A stretch of 64,000 bases of DNA from a virus. Below the pieces are notes generated by a model. It worked only from the letters and a program-made list of their open reading frames with translations. It had not been told where the DNA came from and ran no database searches. Numbering within the stretch: position 1 is the first letter of the stretch; the number at the start of each line of letters is the position of its first letter. This document shows positions 4,601 to 45,570 of the stretch, one piece after another. The DNA lies in IMG/VR virus record IMGVR_UViG_3300030116_004360, positions 26,478 to 90,477 of that record; one strand, 5' to 3'. The position numbers and the translations under genes are program-made.

Positions 4601-7600
4601 TCAATATTCAAGAGGAAATAGACCAATTGGTTTTCATGATATAACATCGGAAACATTTCATGGACGAAACTTATATAGATATTTAGATTTACACTCATCT
4701 GATTCTGGATTGCTTGGTAAAAATAATGTTGTAGTTAATATGTCGAATACGCAACCAATTATGGGAACTAGTAGTGAATTAAAAACAACTGCATCTTCAT
4801 ACAATTTTTATCCCGGAAGTGGTTTTGTAGCGACACATTCTCTATATACTACCCCAAAAACTAGTATTGATATTCAAACACCTCATGAATTAACAGAAAA
4901 TAAACCAGTTGTAGGTAGTAACTTTTTAGATGCAAATAACTATAAATCAACAAATACTCGTTCTGCTTATTTACCACATAATTTTGCATTATTTGATTCT
5001 GGCTCTACTAAACAATCAAAAATTCTATGTTTGCCTAAATCACATTTAGACAGTGATGTAGATTGGGCAAGAGGAAGTTTAGGAAGAGAATCACAATTTA
5101 GCGAAGAAAATCAAGGAAGATTAAATGCTATCCGTAGAGCAAAAGAATATTTAGAACATATAAATAAAAGTGCAGAAAAATATTTTATTTTCTCTCCTTC
5201 GGACATTTATCCAGATTCTAAAACTAGAGAAACAAATATTTTAAACGGTAGTAAGGCTTTTACTGATTATAATATTATGATATATGGTGAACCAACTTTA
5301 GAAGATAGTTCTATTGAATATCAAGATATTGTAGGTAAATTAAATCGTAGTAATACTACTGATGAAAATTATGAAACATTAACTATTTCTGAATCCTCAC
5401 ATAGTCCTTCAGAATTAACTAGATTTGGTGTAATGAGGCTTACCGAAGTTTGTTTTGATTGGCATTTTAATATTGTAGACCCTGAAAATATTATAGAAAA
5501 AAATACTACAATACCTAATTTCGTTTATTCTGCTCATTCAAGTATTGATTATACAACTGCTGGAACTGAAGCAACTGTTAATGGAACAATGGTTTATGCT
5601 TCTGGAAGTCCTGATACATTAAAGGTTCAATGTTCTGCCAATACTTTTTCAGCAGGAGAATATGCTTTTTATCCTGATGGAAATATGTTAGGAAAAATTA
5701 GTTCAATATCATCAGGTGATTTAGTATTTAATATTGGAGCAGGTCAAGATAACCCTAATGGCTTAAATTCTGATACAGATGGTAATTTTCCAGATGGTTC
5801 TAATGTAACTAAACTACATCGTAGAATACCTACTTATTTAACTGGTAATGAAACAATTAATACAATCGTTAAGGGACAAGGAAAGGAAGATACTTTGCAT
5901 AACATTAAAGGTAGTCGTTCTACTCCTAAACAAAATGAAGGATTTCAAATGTATAAAGGAGGTATATTTAGCACTGAAACTGCTACATTTAAGCATGATA
6001 ATGTGAATTATAAATCACAACAAGACAGTGAACAAGCACTTCAAATACCATTTTATTTAGAACAAAAAACAACTGGTTCTTATGAAAATTTTAATGCTCT
6101 TGTTTTCCAAAATGATGGCTTTTCTTTTGTTGAGTATGGAAATCATCAAAAAGTTACTGGTGGTTTACTAAATCCGGGTGAAAGAACTCCGGGTGAATAT
6201 ACTAATATAACACCAGTAGCAACTGATGGTTCAGGTGTAACAGATTTAAGAGTTAAAGTTACTGTATCAAGTCATTATAAAAGACCAGTAACTATAGAAA
6301 TAACAACTCTTGGTTCGGCTTCTAATGGAAATACTTTTAAAATAACTAATACAGATATTTACGATAGTTCTACAAGTGAAGATGAAGCAACCTTTACTGT
6401 TAGAACATCAAGTGGAACAACACATGATGCAGAAGATTTTATTCATCCATCTAGAGTTATAGAAGCGTTTCAGACAGAATCACAAGGAAATAACTCTTCT
6501 AGCATTATTGGTAATAGACAAAATTTATTAAAAACTAATATTTATTATCCTTCAAGAGTAGTTTTATTTGATAAATATTCTTTAGATGCTGCTCCTGATG
6601 GTTCTTCAAATGATACTCAAAGAATAAATATACCAAGTATAAACGGTATGACTCTCCCAGTAGCAAATGGAGCGATTCAACTTAAAGTAGATGCAGAAAC
6701 TAGTGGTAAAAGATATACTTCTATATTTTTACCATTAGAAGATACGTTTGCTAAAGATATTAATATCCAAAGTGGTGATTATTTAGGAGCAGGTTGTGAA
6801 TATTTCTTTAAACCTATACTTGCATTAAAAGCACAAAGTGATATGAGTGGAACATACCCTGCTATGAATACTGTAACAAAAGGAACTAGAACACATACTG
6901 AAATTCACATTAATAATTATGTTAGTAGTCATATAACTCCTGATGGAACAGGTAATTATCATCCTAATAATTATTGGTTAGATTTTGCACCAAATTTAAC
7001 AGGTTACTATTTAGCATCAATGGATGGATATATCACTGATTTAAATGAAGCATCAGCAAATGTATATACTGGTTATGATATGAATGAAGTTTCTTCTTAT
7101 TCTTTACAACCAAATAATATATATTATGTTGTTTCACATACAGTTATAGGGGATGCAAACGGTATAACCCATAAAATAGTTGTGGATGGAAATATAACTG
7201 ATTCAGCAACGCCATTTAATAGATATTTTAGAATTTTGAAACCATCTGAAGTTTGTTTTCATGAAAATACACCAAATGAATTAGAATTTTATACACTTAA
7301 ATCTGAATATACTAAAGAACCTAGAAGTAATAATATGTATAAAGATATTCCTAGTTCAAATAGTTTTCAAAACTCTGTTATTGGTAATACAACTTCAACA
7401 GAAGCAGAAGCATTAAACGCAGAAAGGAGTGTAGTTTCTGGTTATCAGGAAGGAGTATTATCAATGTATGTCGTTGTGGATTCTGATAGATTAGGAGATG
7501 GAAATGATTATGTTGTTAGAAGTCCTGAAAATTTCTTTGGAACAGGATTAAGTGAGGGTAATTATACTTTTTATACAACTGATGGTAATGAAAAATATAA

Positions 7601-25952: not shown

Positions 25953-26800
25953 TCTGTTAAACTACTTCTTCCTTTAGGAATTACCCTATCAGTTTTTTTC
26001 TTTCTTTTCTTTTCACCGAGTCCTAATAATCTACACTCGGCATTATTTAATTTTGTTTTAGCCCATTCTGAAACTAAGTCATCTTTTACTAAATCACGAA
26101 GTAAGTATTCTTCATGGGACTTTAATTTAAGCCTTCTACATAAACCCGGAATCTTAGAGTAAGTTCCTCTTTTTGGAAATTGAGGTCTATTAAAATCTCT
26201 ACCATCATATAAGTATGCTAACATCTCATAGAAATATTTCATAGGTAATCTTCTTCTTACTCTAGCATCAACATAAATTAATCTATTTGGGTGAATATTT
26301 TCATTCAACCAAGACATAATTTGTGTATCTGATGGTTTGTTTACCTTTAGTTTATGTGCTACCTTATCTCTATCTGTTTCTCTTAGATATTCCATTACGA
26401 TACCAAATATCGCATCTTCTAATAAATACGGTTCTGAACTTCTAGGAGCAAGAACTTTTATTTCTTCTCTTAAATGATTCTTAGAACCTACCCTTTTTAT
26501 TTTACAAAGGGCTTTAATTTCTGATGGTATATCTTTTTCATTATGGCAAGTCAATACTAAAGGACCGGAATAATCTATTATTAACGATTTAATTAAATCA
26601 ATATTTGCCTTGTAATGAATATCCTCAATAATTATCCCCTCATCGGTGAGAGAATAAATATCTAATTCAGGCATTAGATTAGCAAAATATCTATTTGCAT
26701 CAGGTAACATATCAATAGCAGTTGTAGATTTACCCGTTCCTGCTTTTCCAACTAAAATTATAGGTTGAGTTTCTTGTGCGATAGTTAAAAATCCCATCAA
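25943..26800 (-). CDS. RFC large-subunit-like AAA+ protein
   Basis: Walker A GKAGTGKS, IIIEDIH, LVLTCHN and a PIP-like C-terminus SSLTEWL. Confidence 0.7.
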   Translation of the reverse strand: MMGFLTIAQETQPIILVGKAGTGKSTTAIDMLPDANRYFANLMPELDIYSLTDEGIIIEDIHYKANIDLIKSLIIDYSGPLVLTCHNEKDIPSEIKALCKIKRVGSKNHLREEIKVLAPRSSEPYLLEDAIFGIVMEYLRETDRDKVAHKLKVNKPSDTQIMSWLNENIHPNRLIYVDARVRRRLPMKYFYEMLAYLYDGRDFNRPQFPKRGTYSKIPGLCRRLKLKSHEEYLLRDLVKDDLVSEWAKTKLNNAECRLLGLGEKKRKKKTDRVIPKGRSSLTEWL

Positions 26801-34064: not shown

Positions 34065-34991
34065 TTATTCCTCCCTATCAAATCTTATTCCATTAACAAA
34101 ATCATCTACTGTTATCATTTGTAATAGTTCTCTCTTTGCTTTACCTTTTACTGTAAAACCTAAATCCCTTAGAAGTTCATTAGTATTATTTCTCGTAGAA
34201 ACTGATGTTGTTTCTGTAACTTCTGCTATTCTTACTAAGGAAAAGTTTCTATGTAATATAGTTCTAGTTACATTCAACACTGTTGCAAAAAATGTTTTAG
34301 TTATTGGTTTTGGTTTAGCATAATAAATGCCTTCGACGTATTTACCAATAATGTGAGCAGTTTTAAGAAACTCAAAATCATTAGGACATAATTTACTAAC
34401 CAATAAATCTATTTCTTGAGGCACATTTTTTTGTGCAATAACATGAGGATTTCTAAAAAATCGTGCTACGATTCTTACCTGCTTAAATAAACTTCTTTCA
34501 CTAATATCTAACTTCTTAGCAGTTTGTTTAATAGTTATTGGTCTTCCTAACTCTTTTAGTGTAAAGAATGTTAAAGCACCTGCTCTAACTTCATAGGGTG
34601 TTCTTTTGAATAACCCAACACTATGCGCCCTTCTACAATATTCTACAAGAGTTTCTTGTGATAAAGGTGTAAAATTTCCATCAGTCATTTCAGTTAAAGC
34701 CATCTTAGAATACTTAATATTTATTTCTAAGGATTGGTGTTTTTTATGGCCGTGAAATTTTTCTGCTCTTTTAAGACGATAACCTATTCCTTCTTTTGCA
34801 TTTATGGGTGCAGAACCTAATTGACCTTTATCAGGAGAATGAATAGTTTCACCCGCCTTATTTAAACTATATGTTGTTTCTTCAAGTATAATTGATTCTG
34901 CTACTAATCCACAAGTATTACAAACAAATGACCCTAATCGGTCATCAAGAGTATATTCTCTTTCTCCACATTCAAGACACGGTTCTCGCAT
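34065..34991 (-). CDS. tfb: transcription factor B (TFB/TFIIB) homolog
   Basis: N-terminal Zn ribbon CLECG…CNTCGLV followed by two cyclin-like helical repeats. Confidence 0.8.
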   Translation of the reverse strand: MREPCLECGEREYTLDDRLGSFVCNTCGLVAESIILEETTYSLNKAGETIHSPDKGQLGSAPINAKEGIGYRLKRAEKFHGHKKHQSLEINIKYSKMALTEMTDGNFTPLSQETLVEYCRRAHSVGLFKRTPYEVRAGALTFFTLKELGRPITIKQTAKKLDISERSLFKQVRIVARFFRNPHVIAQKNVPQEIDLLVSKLCPNDFEFLKTAHIIGKYVEGIYYAKPKPITKTFFATVLNVTRTILHRNFSLVRIAEVTETTSVSTRNNTNELLRDLGFTVKGKAKRELLQMITVDDFVNGIRFDREE

Positions 34992-43151: not shown

Positions 43152-43375
43152 TCTTCTTCACCCCTTAGTTTTAAATTTTCTGCTAGAAGCCTTTGAACTT
43201 CTAATTCTTGATTCTTTAAATGAGCCTCAAGAATTTCAATGTTATCTTCTTCTTTTTCAAAGAATTGGATTAACATTTGTCTTACATCATTCTTACGAAT
43301 CCATTCACCTGCAAATTTCTTTTGCGGTAATGATTCTAAATATTCTTCTGCTTTCTTTATTACATCTATTTTCAT
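43148..43375 (-). CDS. hypothetical protein
   Basis: 75 aa ORF coupled to the YbjN gene. Confidence 0.6.
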   Translation of the reverse strand: MKIDVIKKAEEYLESLPQKKFAGEWIRKNDVRQMLIQFFEKEEDNIEILEAHLKNQELEVQRLLAENLKLRGEEE

Positions 43376-43408
43376 ATTATTTCCTCTTTAAGTATTTATT
43401 TGAATAGG

Positions 43409-43482
43409 TGGGTCTAGAGGGATTTGAACCCCCGACCAACGGATTAAAAGCCCGTCGCTCTACCTGACTAAGCCATAGACCC
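43409..43482 (-). tRNA. tRNA-Lys(UUU)
   Basis: Reverse complement folds as a cloverleaf: GGGTCTA acceptor, ACGGG-CTTTTAA-TCCGT anticodon arm and GGTTCAAATCC T-arm. CCA is not encoded. Confidence 0.9.
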
Positions 43483-43520
43483 ATAATTAACTAAAGAATG
43501 ACCGGCTTATAAATCATTCT

Positions 43521-44084
43521 CTATTCTAAAGGAACATTAGCATTAAATTGTTTATTAAACTTAATTATTTGCTCTTGTTTCTTTTTGATGATATGGTCTT
43601 TAGGCCACCATGAAGGAGTTCCTGTCTTCCATGTGGCAAAATCCCATTTATCACCTAAGTAATATTGACGATATGCTTTAATTGCATCATCATCCTTATA
43701 TTTATCAGGCATAGCCTGTGCAAACGGAGTTAAACACTTATCTAACTCTCTTTTCTCTTTAAGAAGATTTGAACATTCTATGAAACTTAGTTCATATTTA
43801 TCCATATGTTCTTCCACTTTATGTTTTTTGTTATATCTGATTGTATACTCTTTACATAGGGCATAACAATGGTCTATCAGCCAATTGAAGTTTTTATAAC
43901 TTTTTCTCGCCCAAATAGTGCAAGGATGGTTGAGCATGACCGGCTTAAATGGGGCTGGAATAGCATAATGATGCAAAATAGTAGACAACATTTGGAGGCT
44001 TTCCGTTGGCATCTTAACTATATGCTTATCAATCATATATTCTGCTGCTAATTTAGGACAATCACTTAATATAAATATGTTCAT
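43521..44084 (-). CDS. pyrimidine-dimer DNA glycosylase-like (Pyr_excise family) protein
   Basis: MNIFILS…DKHIVKMPTESLQMLST…HPCTIWAR…FAQAMPD…AYRQYY. Confidence 0.75.
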   Translation of the reverse strand: MNIFILSDCPKLAAEYMIDKHIVKMPTESLQMLSTILHHYAIPAPFKPVMLNHPCTIWARKSYKNFNWLIDHCYALCKEYTIRYNKKHKVEEHMDKYELSFIECSNLLKEKRELDKCLTPFAQAMPDKYKDDDAIKAYRQYYLGDKWDFATWKTGTPSWWPKDHIIKKKQEQIIKFNKQFNANVPLE

Positions 44085-44109
44085 TGTTTATCACCTATGT
44101 AATAGAAAT

Positions 44110-44429
44110 ACGGTGCGAGTTCATAGTAAAGAGAAAAAACTACTATCATCTGTTTGCTAAAACCTTTTCTCGCTTTTATTTGATGCAAAACCGTGAATAT
44201 TATTCTGGGAACTAGTTCATAAAAATCGTAAATTACTATCAGCATCTAAAATGGTAAATTGGGCGGGTTTAATGTCCTATATTTAACATAGATGAACGGT
44301 TTTTCTAGTTTTTATTTGCTGCAAAACCCAGATGAATATTAAACAGGGAACTAGTTCATAGAAAAAAAGATACTACTATCAACGTGTGAAAAACGTTTTT
44401 CTAGTTTTTATTTGTTGCAAAACCCAGTT
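44110..44429 (-). ncRNA. tandem array of three structured ncRNA units
   Basis: Units at 44110-44194, 44204-44332 and 44342-44429 share TTTTGCANCAAATAAAA, TGATAGTA and TATGAACT and have covarying stems. Strand inferred from the flanking tRNAs. Confidence 0.6.
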
Positions 44430-44441
44430 ATATAATTTAGG

Positions 44442-44523
44442 TGCAGGTAGTAGGATTTGAACCTACGAAGCATTTTGCACCGGAACTTAACTCCGGCTCC
44501 TTTGACCACTCGGATATACCTGC
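44442..44523 (-). tRNA. tRNA-Leu(UAA)
   Basis: GCAGGTA/TACCTGC acceptor, CCGGA-GTTAAGT-TCCGG anticodon arm, long variable arm and GTAGGTTCAAATCCTAC T-arm. Confidence 0.85.
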
Positions 44524-44535
44524 ATTTTGTTATAA

Positions 44536-45270
44536 TTACTCATCAAATGAGACAAGTAATAGGATAAGATAGCCAATCAAGTCCATGATTACATCTTCAT
44601 CCTTTTCAATTGAATCATCTCCTTGAAGGAGCCTATTCAACTTATCATCAATTCTAACTCTAATTTGTTCATCACTATTTGCTTTACTGAATACTCTAAT
44701 TGGAGCAAGAACTGAATCACCATATTGCTTATTCTTAAGCAAAAGGAAGTGCGTAATTTCTCCACATTTCCTTGCAATCTTTTCTTGTGAATCTGTTAAT
44801 TTTGTTTCATTCTCAATTGTTTTATTTGCTTCTTCATATGCTTTAACCCAAGATGGAACTTCTTCTTTACCCATAAAATATTTCTTAAAGTTTTCAGTAT
44901 TTATTTCATTCTGAGCATCATCAATTGCATCTAACTTTTCTTCAGCAGTTGCATTTGTATATTGAGCAACTCCAGCAGCCTTTCTAATCTTTTGAACTTG
45001 AATCCAAAAATCACTTTGAAGACACAAATATGTTGACCTTCCTTCCTTGTGTGAATTAAACATATGTTTTATCATATTAAATCTCTTATACGCTGCACCT
45101 ACACTACAATAATTTATTTCCATATATGTGTCCAATAATACCTTTTTATTGATATCTGTATATTCTGAATTAATATCCATCATATGTGCTTTTCTCCAAG
45201 CCATCATAAAGTCATTAATTATCTTAAATTTTGTTTTTGCTTCTTTTTGTTTCTTATTCATTTTTTTCAC
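44536..45270 (-). CDS. protein with C-terminal DUF1599-like (nucleotide-modification-associated) domain
   Basis: KNKQYGDS…IRVRIDDKLNRL…DLIGYLIL. Confidence 0.65.
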   Translation of the reverse strand: MKKMNKKQKEAKTKFKIINDFMMAWRKAHMMDINSEYTDINKKVLLDTYMEINYCSVGAAYKRFNMIKHMFNSHKEGRSTYLCLQSDFWIQVQKIRKAAGVAQYTNATAEEKLDAIDDAQNEINTENFKKYFMGKEEVPSWVKAYEEANKTIENETKLTDSQEKIARKCGEITHFLLLKNKQYGDSVLAPIRVFSKANSDEQIRVRIDDKLNRLLQGDDSIEKDEDVIMDLIGYLILLLVSFDE

Positions 45271-45289
45271 CTTTTTGTTTGTCGAAAAT

Positions 45290-45570
45290 AGTGTGTATCA
45301 TAAGCGTATCAAACGCTGATACAGACGAAACATAACGATTCTCGACATAAATCGAAATGTTTCTTTTTGATTCGGGGTCATTAGTATCATGTATCATGTG
45401 TATCACCCTAGCCATATAGTTTTATTCTCTTAGGCTAATATTTTGACCCACCGGAGACAGATACACATGAGAATCATGATATATATGAGAATCAATATAA
45501 AATATATTAAAACAACTCTACTTTCCATAAATTCTATGTGTATTACTATGATACTCTATGAGACACATTA
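45290..45570. repeat. cluster of TGATAC/GTATCA and ATGAGA short repeats in non-coding DNA (origin candidate)
   Basis: gtgtgtatca, cgtatca, tgatacag, gtatcatgtatcatgtgtatca, gatacacatgagaatcatgatatatatgagaatca and atgatactctatgagacaca. Confidence 0.5.

Follow-up and report, generated by a model that had tools for sequence, protein, structure and literature searches.

A predicted family of pseudoknotted RNAs in tandem beside tRNA genes, before genes and within a tRNA intron of magrovirus-like marine viruses

The window analysed here, a stretch of 64,000 nucleotides (nt; positions 26,478 to 90,477) of the virus record IMGVR_UViG_3300030116_004360, contains 355 nt between a tRNA-Leu(UAA) gene (44440-44523) and the ATG of the open reading frame (ORF) at 43521-44084 that are filled by three head-to-tail units. 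These units, W1 (88 nt), W2 (129 nt) and W3 (85 nt), are given in the numbering of the 64-kb window and read 5' to 3' on the minus strand. An initial annotation had placed three tandem minus-strand copies of a structured RNA at 44110-44429, which repeat searching, motif counts and a check of the individual segments all confirm. Judged from sequence comparison, W1-W3 are paralogues of an uncatalogued pseudoknotted RNA family of ~80-130 nt found in magrovirus-like tailed viruses, with the unit layout P1 - 17-nt conserved strand - P2 - variable segment - AUAG - P3 - UGAA - P2' - P1'.

A 40-nt core recurs in the repeat search in three copies with 75-100% identity and spacings of 136 and 96 nt. The 16-letter motif TTTGCANCAAATAAAA occurs three times without mismatch in the window, always inside the array, and six times with up to two mismatches against 1.43 expected, a count reached by none of 100 shuffles; the whole 90,477-bp record holds no units beyond W1-W3. 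The P1 arms are AACTGGG/CCCTGTT (W1, with a U-U mismatch at the fourth pair), TCTGGG/CCCAGA and ACGGT/ACCGT, and the P2 arms are ACTAG/CTAGT in two units and GCGAG/CTCGC in W3, the last P2 pair being G-C in all three. Both stems are thus as first listed, and their compensatory changes hold up as significant covariation in aligned relatives. The proposed AATATTC is indeed common to both inter-unit linkers, TAATATTCA and ATAATATTC, and the insertion noted in one unit is found in W2, where the variable segment measures 57 nt versus 13-14 nt in W1 and W3, giving a size of ~43 nt in place of the ~45 nt estimated. The gap between tRNA-Leu and the array is 10 nt (ARAGORN end at 44440) or 12 nt (Rfam end at 44442), not the 13 nt originally given. 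Of the constant segments that had been proposed, AUAG stands, while 'TGATAGTA' as a single motif does not, being a composite whose first letters belong to a covarying pseudoknot strand.

Features of the locus are listed below; R1, R2 and R3 denote the first covariance model, a broadened model and a third model seeded from a clean alignment, type I denotes the tRNA-linked units with AUAG or AUAA (B type excluded), and A to E are the unit types in the arrays of related viruses.

44440-44523, minus strand: tRNA-Leu (anticodon UAA), directly upstream of the array (ARAGORN; Rfam tRNA model 56.2 bits at 44442-44523)
44430-44439, minus strand: 10-nt linker from tRNA-Leu to W1
44342-44429, minus strand: unit W1, 88 nt (R1 90 bits, E 5.7e-18; R3 76.6 bits)
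44423-44429, minus strand: W1 P1 5' arm AACUGGG, pairing with 44342-44348 with one U-U mismatch (covariation)
44406-44422, minus strand: W1 conserved strand J, UUUUG-CAAC-AAAUAAAA, an exact motif match and the best-conserved part of the family
44414-44417, minus strand: W1 pseudoknot 5' strand CAAC, pairing with GUUG at 44380-44383
44401-44406, minus strand: W1 P2 5' arm A+ACUAG, pairing with 44349-44354 (RNAalifold, unfitted alignment)
44384-44396, minus strand: W1 variable segment, strongly divergent among otherwise near-identical D-type relatives
44380-44383, minus strand: W1 pseudoknot 3' strand GUUG
44376-44379, minus strand: W1 constant AUAG (AUAG in 22 of 27 distinct type-I units, AUAA in five E-type units)
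44359-44375, minus strand: W1 P3 hairpin, UAG ... CUA with a U-rich loop (P3 covaries across the family)
44355-44358, minus strand: W1 constant UGAA (GAA in 22 of 27 units, AAA in five E-type units)
44349-44354, minus strand: W1 P2 3' arm CUAGU+U (RNAalifold, covariation)
44342-44348, minus strand: W1 P1 3' arm CCCUGUU (RNAalifold, covariation)
44333-44341, minus strand: linker between W1 and W2, UAAUAUUCA
44204-44332, minus strand: unit W2, 129 nt, with a 57-nt variable segment at 44244-44300 (R1 69.1 bits)
44318-44321, minus strand: W2 pseudoknot 5' strand CAGC, pairing with GCUG at 44240-44243
44240-44243, minus strand: W2 pseudoknot 3' strand GCUG
44220-44235, minus strand: W2 P3 hairpin, UAA ... 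UUA
44195-44203, minus strand: linker between W2 and W3, AUAAUAUUC
44110-44194, minus strand: unit W3, 85 nt, with P1 ACGGU/ACCGU and P2 GCGAG/CUCGC (R1 71.5 bits)
44182-44185, minus strand: W3 pseudoknot 5' strand CAUC, pairing with GAUG at 44147-44150
44147-44150, minus strand: W3 pseudoknot 3' strand GAUG
44124-44142, minus strand: W3 P3 hairpin, UAGU ... ACUA
44085-44109, minus strand: 25-nt spacer in which a Shine-Dalgarno-like AGGUGAU precedes the start codon (ATG) of the gene that follows
43521-44084, minus strand: downstream gene, 187 amino acids (aa), pyrimidine-dimer glycosylase-like (phrog_624, E 1.2e-57; Pfam Pyr_excise, E 3.2e-10)
43407-43482, minus strand: tRNA-Lys (anticodon UUU), second tRNA of the cluster (ARAGORN; Rfam 71.9 bits)

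The 3' arms of P1 (4-7 base pairs, bp) and P2 (5-6 bp) run together without a break as P2'+P1', and their 5' arms are split by a conserved 16-17-nt bulge of the form UUUUG-NNNN-AAAUAAAA. RNAalifold adds a pair between the final A of the conserved strand and the linker U that follows P2', except in W3, so that the P2'+P1' strand is continuous and the conserved strand forms a bulge on the 5' side. Within P2 lie the P3 hairpin and the variable segment, the latter forming a hairpin in some paralogues, and the constant purine-rich stretches AAAR, AUAG and (U)GAA join them; GG-UUUUG and AAAUAAAA are likewise constant and single-stranded. P1 and P2 are recovered by RNAalifold on a MAFFT alignment unfitted to any structure, and in the first model alignment 92.5% of their cells are paired against 68.6% in shuffles, with 11 of 12 pairs changing on both sides.

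A fourth helix, absent from the initial annotation, is formed by positions 6-9 of the conserved strand (NNNN) and the 4 nt immediately 5' of AUAG, a pairing that crosses P2 and therefore makes the fold a pseudoknot. The words are CAAC/GUUG in W1, CAGC/GCUG in W2 and CAUC/GAUG in W3, and in relatives UGCC/GGCA (A and E), UAUC/GAUA and UAUU/AAUA (C) and UAAC/GUUA (the D unit of contig L171). In fixed register all four pairs form in 26 of the 27 distinct units, and of the 40 cells in the ten distinct word pairs 39 are paired, compared with 28.4 +/- 2.3 when shuffled (0 of 10,000 shuffles). P3 likewise varies on both sides (UAG/CUA, UAU/AUA, UAA/UUA, GGUU/AACC, GGUG/CACC, GGC/GCC, GGAC/GUCC, GGCG/CGCC). 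The R3 alignment, A8, contains 35 hits (34 distinct rows) and was built with a model holding P1, P2 and P3 and not the pseudoknot. Across all four helices, 90.3% of its 673 cells are standard pairs against 66.6% in shuffles (0 of 500), sliding the partners by 1-3 columns drops pairing to 24-44%, and 19 of 21 pairs change both sides. The pseudoknot is 89.5% paired in A8 with all four pairs covarying, a figure lowered by the misalignment of W2 and the L168 D unit at this helix, and the P3 registers of D-type and A/C/E-type units lie one column apart. Pairs of the G-U kind occur only when the units are read on the minus strand.

Single-sequence folding gives minimum free energy z-scores of +0.46, +1.19 and +0.13 for W1, W2 and W3, no better than shuffles. 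Given the weakness of AU-rich stems, thermodynamics is uninformative either way, and the case for structure rests on covariation. On these grounds we regard a real, selected RNA family with the predicted four-helix fold as almost certain. A UUUUG/UAAAA hairpin with a 7-nt loop in the conserved strand is possible on paper; it was set aside, having no informative variation and competing with the pseudoknot. Readings of the constant purines as a kink-turn, loop-E or Sm site were also rejected, none matching the respective consensus by eye.

The covariance models and viral metagenome searches suggested in the initial annotation returned relatives whose stems covary, and these relatives and alignments support its description of a viral RNA with a constant scaffold and variable segments. 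A pattern joining the conserved strand to a downstream GAUAGUA found one IMG/VR contig, L123, and a broader pattern added L153. A stricter pattern gave 11 IMG/VR loci, nine of them coding-like chance matches by eye and only L123 and L153 real, and the single matches of a loose TTTGCANCAAATAAAA-type motif at no fewer than 119 IMG/VR loci were treated as chance. Pattern scanning of metagenomes yielded ten loci, eight with real arrays or units, always beside tRNA-Lys and/or tRNA-Leu. The real loci include TARA scaffolds, and one of them (L162) has a score identical to that of the window; the remaining two, L166 (18.3 bits) and L167 (28.6 bits), were judged chance. Two cellular matches, in metagenome-assembled genomes (MAGs) of Woesearchaeota (31.4 bits) and Ruminococcaceae (28.6 bits; the contig of L167), have a mispaired P1 and were dismissed in the same way. 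Pattern searching of genome contigs found no cellular copy, Poseidoniales genomes not being covered as a group, and window positions 43300-45300 had no megablast match among isolated phages.

In L123 and L153 the array reads tRNA-Lys(UUU)-A-B-C-D-tRNA-Leu(UAA)-E with linkers of 3-13 nt, packed like tRNA genes, and this order is kept in L123, L153, L165, L168 and L169 (E is cut off in L168); in L163, tRNA-Leu, tRNA-Glu and tRNA-Lys precede A, B, C and D. W1-W3 are all of D type, W1 being 86% identical to the L123 D unit and 59-65% identical to A, B, C and E units. Between the same two viruses, tRNAs are 98-99% identical and the family B DNA polymerase (PolB) is 61% identical (L178 being the L123 contig). 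Compensatory stem changes accompany this conservation: D-type P2 changes from ACUAG/CUAGU to ACGGC/GCCGU, B-type P2 from UUGAAU/AUUCAA to UUAAAC/GUUUAA or UUGAAC/GUUCAA, and C-type P3 from GGUU/AACC to GGUG/CACC. The identity of W1 to D above that of PolB, and a paralogue order kept while stems compensate, are comparative evidence for arrays apparently maintained by selection.

B units lack AUAG, P3 and GAA and keep P1, the conserved strand, P2 and the pseudoknot, which reads GCACA/UGUGC in five contigs and ACACA/UGUGU in L153 and L171. The L123 B unit scores only 7.6 bits with R1, and no single model covers B-type and minimal units (described at the end), MAFFT having aligned the 3' ends poorly when all unit types were combined. 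The viral tRNA-Lys genes of these arrays (L123 808-884, L153 514-590 and relatives) encode the 3' CCA, and unit A starts 6 nt later. Linkers before many units, in the window (44333-44341, 44195-44203) and at L123, L127, L275, L279 and L318, end in AUUC(A)(C) just before P1; recurring across subfamilies, this ending could be a processing or initiation signal.

A second and larger subfamily emerged among viruses related by PolB. Of 215 IMG/VR stretches encoding relatives of the window PolB the best 80 were kept, and applying R1 to 49 whole records revealed weaker though real family members; R2 matches 15 of 53 records at E<=0.01, with five of nine matching among records at least 90% complete. 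The conserved strand of this subfamily is GG-UUUAUCCARUAAUAA, a pattern scan for which gave 64 loci, and R2 matches 41 places at E<=0.001, 27 of them distinct. Its pseudoknot pairs UCCA with UGGA or CGGA, and L294, L308 and L302 carry UCGA on both strands, a compensatory change. Most of its loci have no tRNA, and the association with tRNA genes drawn in the initial annotation, true of the window array, is thus not general. Instead, an ORF of at least 50 codons starts within 120 nt downstream of 25 of the 27 distinct units, at a median distance of 22 nt, and a script flagged a Shine-Dalgarno-like sequence ahead of the ATG in 20 of those 25. Such an ORF is missing only after the leading unit of one tandem pair and after a tRNA-intron copy. 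The genes downstream are unrelated to one another, their N-termini being of at least ten kinds, and several units lie upstream of a helicase-like first gene of a gene run. In the tRNA-linked arrays, W3 and E units are similarly followed by AGGUGAU/GAGGUGAU and an ATG.

The intron copy lies at 851-1024 of L258 (IMGVR_UViG_3300024520_000333; L308 is the same contig), where a family unit sits inside a tRNA-Lys(UUU) gene, and a second contig, L345, has an intron-type copy with its unit at 5370-5468. The L258 tRNA matches positions 1-71 of the Rfam tRNA model with 55.3 bits and has a 101-nt insertion directly after CUUUUA, which is the canonical 37/38 intron position; tRNA-Leu, tRNA-Met and tRNA-Arg follow it. 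Read by hand, its bulge-helix-bulge consists of a 4-bp CUUU/GAAG helix (one G-U) with bulges UAA and AUA, and the inner helix, GGGG/CCUC, is P1 of the unit. With the 37/38 position, two 3-nt bulges and a 4-bp helix, the copy has the predicted features of an archaeal bulge-helix-bulge tRNA intron, a motif described as the substrate of the archaeal splicing endonuclease (PMC4090602). On sequence criteria L258 is therefore an intron-bearing tRNA in a marine archaeal virus, and its motif supports a probable archaeal host. The flanks of the tandem units in the window, L123 and L153 show no consistent motif of this type, and a scripted check of 13 tandem units found none with a full 4-bp central helix and an outer helix of more than 2 bp.

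The gene content of the window record also points to an archaeal virus. Its PolB best matches are those of Halorubrum and Haloarcula tailed viruses (26-27% identity), it encodes GroEL (phrog_5725), ribonucleotide reductase, an ATP-dependent DNA ligase and two tRNAs, and its relatives are marine, TARA samples included. Magroviruses are described as having genomes of ~90-100 kb, a family B polymerase nearest to haloarchaeal tailed viruses and a chaperonin, and those of group B as encoding ribonucleotide reductase, GroEL and two tRNAs (Philosof et al., PMC5434244). By these genomic features the window virus is magrovirus-like, with a fit to group B, and its host is therefore probably a marine archaeon, an aspect on which the initial annotation was silent. 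Magroviruses are reported to be globally widespread and abundant and to infect Marine Group II archaea, among the most abundant ocean microbes (PMC5434244), which would give the RNA family ecological reach. The searched passages of the magrovirus literature (PMC5434244; Zhou et al. 2023, PMC10160649; PMC11706807) contain none of the terms for non-coding RNAs or introns that were looked for, and the consulted part of a Red Sea mdRNA-Seq study (PMC5069720) describes a 229-nt host RNA, Tan1, and nothing resembling these units. A 308-aa ORF of the window (34065-34991, minus strand) matches a TFIIB-type zinc ribbon with 25.3 bits, below the Pfam cut-off of 29.

We tentatively favour, at somewhat less than even confidence, the view that the units act as released, stable, trans-acting RNA modules with copy-specific variable arms. 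The array, tRNA-Leu and the downstream gene would be transcribed as one precursor; such co-transcription, already suggested for tRNA-Leu in the initial annotation, is plausible because of the shared orientation and linkers of 9-25 nt. Each unit would then fold alone, the differing pseudoknot words of W1-W3 preventing mispairing between neighbours. It would constitute a self-contained module independent of its flanks, since it has been retained between tRNAs, ahead of unrelated genes and within an intron alike. Nucleases that mature the flanking tRNAs would excise the units as stable small RNAs, and release of the intron copy would fall to the splicing endonuclease. Once free, each RNA would be bound by a conserved protein through its constant knotted core, and its individual specificity would reside in the variable arm or the P3 loop. 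Such release is favoured by the intron copy and by the maintenance of distinct paralogues in ordered arrays resembling those of tRNA genes.

Several observations weigh against release as trans-acting modules. Folding energies of single sequences do not exceed those of shuffles, the tandem units lack consistent bulge-helix-bulge flanks so that the mechanism leaves their separation unexplained, and the ~22-nt distance before start codons in the second subfamily fits a cis-acting leader at least equally well. The conserved paralogue order was observed among close viral relatives and could in part be inherited from a common ancestor, and the window virus carries only D-like copies, which makes the other paralogues dispensable. 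A hairpin in the W1 variable segment would overlap the pseudoknot strand, and the arm forms no defined hairpin in D-type units. Mimicry of a tRNA acceptor/T-arm as a 12-bp ruler for RNase P or RNase Z is weakened as well, C-type P1 having only 4 bp, so that such a ruler is not general. Finally, the RNA modules are known here from genome sequence.

An alternative that we consider rather less probable is that the knotted core is itself an active RNA machine, either a new ribozyme punctuating viral polycistrons or a leader reprogramming the archaeal RNA polymerase or decay machinery; the same module would then work between tRNAs, before unrelated genes and inside an intron. RNase III sites in phage T7 serve as processing sites for a host nuclease, and the put RNAs of phage HK022 confer resistance to oligo-U terminators on RNA polymerase. 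A cis-acting role of this kind, in which a knotted leader or intercistronic element would work on its own transcript and might protect messages from 5'-to-3' decay, mark a nuclease site, aid translation start or act in anti-termination, is an unlikely reading, though one to be taken seriously. It accords with the position of second-subfamily units before ORFs and Shine-Dalgarno-like words, with W3 and E units preceding AGGUGAU/GAGGUGAU and an ATG, and with the units that head a gene run starting with a helicase-like gene, and a co-transcriptional role would be workable from an intron or between tRNAs. The window array also heads a leftward block of 31 kb that, at 32% G+C, still has 46 sense-strand runs of at least five T. 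Such a leader would find no message to serve where A-D lie between two tRNAs, however, and the intron copy leaves its transcript on removal; the genes served are unrelated, and the core is more elaborate and conserved than a protective hairpin requires. Moreover, compact genomes put any intergenic element near a start codon, as illustrated by one unit 17 nt after a stop codon and 24 nt before an ATG. In the gene block downstream of the array (12856-44084, minus strand) sense-strand runs of at least six T are depleted (6 versus 18.5 shuffled), A-runs less so (34 versus 57), as would be expected if oligo-U terminators were being avoided.

A new class of self-cleaving ribozyme, in which the junction purines and knotted bulge would form an active site that cuts the tRNA-RNA-mRNA precursor and sets mRNA 5' ends, appears more doubtful again. 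The conservation of the units is like that of small ribozymes, with an invariant junction, covarying stems of variable length and a knot, and insertions are tolerated in peripheral hairpins (the W2 variable segment and A-type P3). The units are of suitable size (~80-90 nt), viral, multi-copy and tandem, and stand between cistrons or before start codons. Against this, four consecutive different units (A-B-C-D) exceed processing needs, a ribozyme has no obvious use inside a tRNA intron, the sequence names no cleavage site, no Rfam ribozyme model matches at E<=10, and the helix order is unlike that of hammerhead or hepatitis delta virus (HDV) ribozymes. The hammerhead has an invariant CUGANGA core strand before stem II, and its stems III and I are joined by one cleavage-site nucleotide after U. 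The window units resemble it in the three-way junction of P2, variable arm and P3, with YUGAUAG before P3 and (U)GAA after it, like the core strands on either side of hammerhead stem II. This likeness appears coincidental because the UGA here lies in the covarying pseudoknot strand (GUUG, GCUG, GAUG, GGCA, GAUA, AAUA), the letters before P3 are always AG (AA in E-type) and not GA, and 3-4 purines (A/G) separate P2 from the variable arm instead of the single nucleotide of the hammerhead. Across the 27 distinct units the tetranucleotide ahead of AUAG is variable and base-paired to the conserved strand (ten word pairs), and P2 is followed by AAAA or AAAG (UAAG in the L171 C unit) before the variable arm in all 27 units.

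HDV-like ribozymes form a nested double pseudoknot in the order P1-P2-P3-P3'-P1'-P4-P4'-P2'; the order here is P1-PK-P2-(variable)-PK'-(P3)-P2'-P1' (PK, pseudoknot strand), and no HDV-family model matches at E<=10. The twister and twister-sister ribozymes share with the units P1, an internal loop, P2, a multi-helix junction and a tertiary pairing from loop to distal element; the units differ in their one-sided internal loop and in conserved nucleotides that are A/U-rich and different, and have no Rfam match to either. A parallel in genomic setting is offered by theta ribozymes, HDV-like RNAs described beside tRNA genes of gut phages (Kienbeck et al. 2024, PMC10879173). As described there, they too are small knotted viral RNAs in many diverse copies on the same strand beside tRNA genes, and by analogy both may have a role in maturing tRNA-containing transcripts, tRNA adjacency thus lending the ribozyme some support. 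The two differ in other respects: theta ribozymes have the nested double-pseudoknot HDV fold and a cleavage site that abuts the tRNA, whereas the units start 6-12 nt after the tRNA, stand up to four in tandem, have a different helix order and probably an archaeal host.

A riboswitch-type sensor, which would recognise a small molecule or ion through its knotted junction and regulate the gene downstream, with tandem copies sharpening the response, is very improbable. Aptamers are commonly built as pseudoknotted three-way junctions with conserved unpaired purines, start codons follow closely on many units, and tandem aptamers have been reported (PMC9481103). Nevertheless, the downstream genes are unrelated, with their ten or more N-termini, units also occur between tRNAs and in a tRNA intron, no expression platform is visible (neither an alternative Shine-Dalgarno pairing nor a terminator), and Rfam riboswitch models give no match at E<=10. 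The absence of any RNA structure at all, leaving a DNA-level repeat (iterons or an origin), decayed tRNA genes, a CRISPR-like mini-array or a 54-aa gene at 44081-44245, is scarcely credible, since the tandem direct repeats, the same-strand ORF across W2-W3 and the unremarkable folding energy on which it could draw are set against four helices, including a long-range pseudoknot, that survive two-sided changes unpredicted by a DNA site or coding frame, G-U pairs on the minus-strand reading only, no call by tRNA finders for any unit, lengths of 85-129 nt with variable stems in place of identical repeats with short spacers, and an ORF start within the W2 variable insertion, which D-type relatives lack. 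That ORF (minus strand, from the W2 variable insertion through W3) was listed mechanically and is probably spurious.

Comparison with catalogued families returned no match to the units. At gathering scores, Rfam 15 finds just the two tRNAs in the window, the nine matches to 43300-44700 at E<=10 include none overlapping 44110-44429, L123 880-1480 gives a tRNA and chance rows at E<=10, and six loci with divergent members give tRNAs only at E<=0.1. The earlier reading of the units as an unrecognised RNA therefore stands against Rfam at gathering scores and at E<=10, as does their separation from CRISPR, hammerhead and C/D RNAs, which is borne out by the spacing, the covarying UGA, the absence of boxes by eye and the lack of an Rfam match. 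A CRISPR array or solitary repeats were rejected on the period of 96-136 nt and on copies that differ in their stems with compensatory changes, and a tRNA or tRNA pseudogene on the ARAGORN and Rfam tRNA calls, which in the window are tRNA-Leu and tRNA-Lys only. Archaeal C/D guides carry terminal C and D boxes in a kink-turn, and H/ACA guides have a two-sided pseudouridylation pocket and a 3' ACA. By eye the units have no terminal box pairs, a one-sided internal loop (16-17 nt versus none) and no constant ACA after P1', and no snoRNA-type Rfam model matches over them at E<=10 in 43300-44700. The suggestion that the variable segments are guides found no support among the neighbouring tRNAs, to which the longest Watson-Crick complements of the units are 4-8 nt and mostly equalled by shuffles, rRNA and host targets not being covered; guidance of neighbouring tRNAs was rejected on this chance-level complementarity. 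The UUUUGCA of the conserved strands (44174-44190, 44310-44326 and 44406-44422, and also in L123) complements the tRNA-Leu variable arm over 7-8 nt, probably by chance because the match is lost in L153.

Other small RNAs are delivered from tRNA genes: archaea carry a C/D RNA within the intron of tRNA-Trp, plants have tRNA-snoRNA dicistrons, and murine gammaherpesvirus 68 expresses small RNAs linked to tRNAs. The units appear to share this arrangement, a tRNA intron with a bulge-helix-bulge or a direct tRNA linkage in one precursor from which tRNA-processing enzymes would free the neighbour, and differ in being a knotted three-way junction with no C/D box, H/ACA pocket or kink-turn by eye. GOLLD, ROOL and RNAs C and D of phage T4 are orphan RNAs of bacterial viruses in or near tRNA clusters, mostly several hundred nt long. 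The units are likewise viral non-coding RNAs embedded in or adjoining tRNA clusters, and are distinguished by their 80-130 nt, their modular and tandem organisation, their archaeal viruses and their unrelated folds.

As judged by these comparisons the RNA family is new, with dozens of diverse members and a predicted four-helix pseudoknot fold matching nothing catalogued, and within the searches made it is found only in viruses assigned to marine archaea. To our knowledge, archaeal viruses have so far yielded very few structured non-coding RNAs, and this family has three deployments: tRNA-linked ordered arrays of paralogues, leaders before genes and a tRNA intron. A ribozyme or a leader modifying polymerase or decay would represent a new class of mechanism and a tool for archaeal genetics, the leader being the first such element known in archaea, and protein-bound small RNAs would point to a new virus-host interaction. 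The covariance models also provide a marker for these viruses and their transcripts in ocean metatranscriptomes.

Further forms occur in other contigs. In L127, a 96,094-bp record with terminal repeats, the intergenic positions 700-1060 hold at least four stem-closed units with UUCAC-type linkers upstream of a helicase-like ORF. Family members lie at 795-896 and 966-1057, and two other hairpin types accompany them, one a hairpin of 12 bp and the other a unit whose closing stem is ACUCAUAU/AUAUGAGU. A minimal unit of ~55 nt, with the layout GGAGG - UUUAAAAGGUAAAAAUG - short hairpin - UUUU - CCUCC, is present in the ~60 nt directly upstream of units in L255, L256, L259 and L273, and resembles a reduced family member that has kept just P1, P2 and the conserved strand. 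In L293, L329, L291 and L315 a conserved palindrome, GUUAUUUGAUAAC, lies ~20-32 nt upstream of units, a spacing that would be right for an archaeal TATA/BRE region, or for the binding site of a regulator, if a transcript began at the unit.

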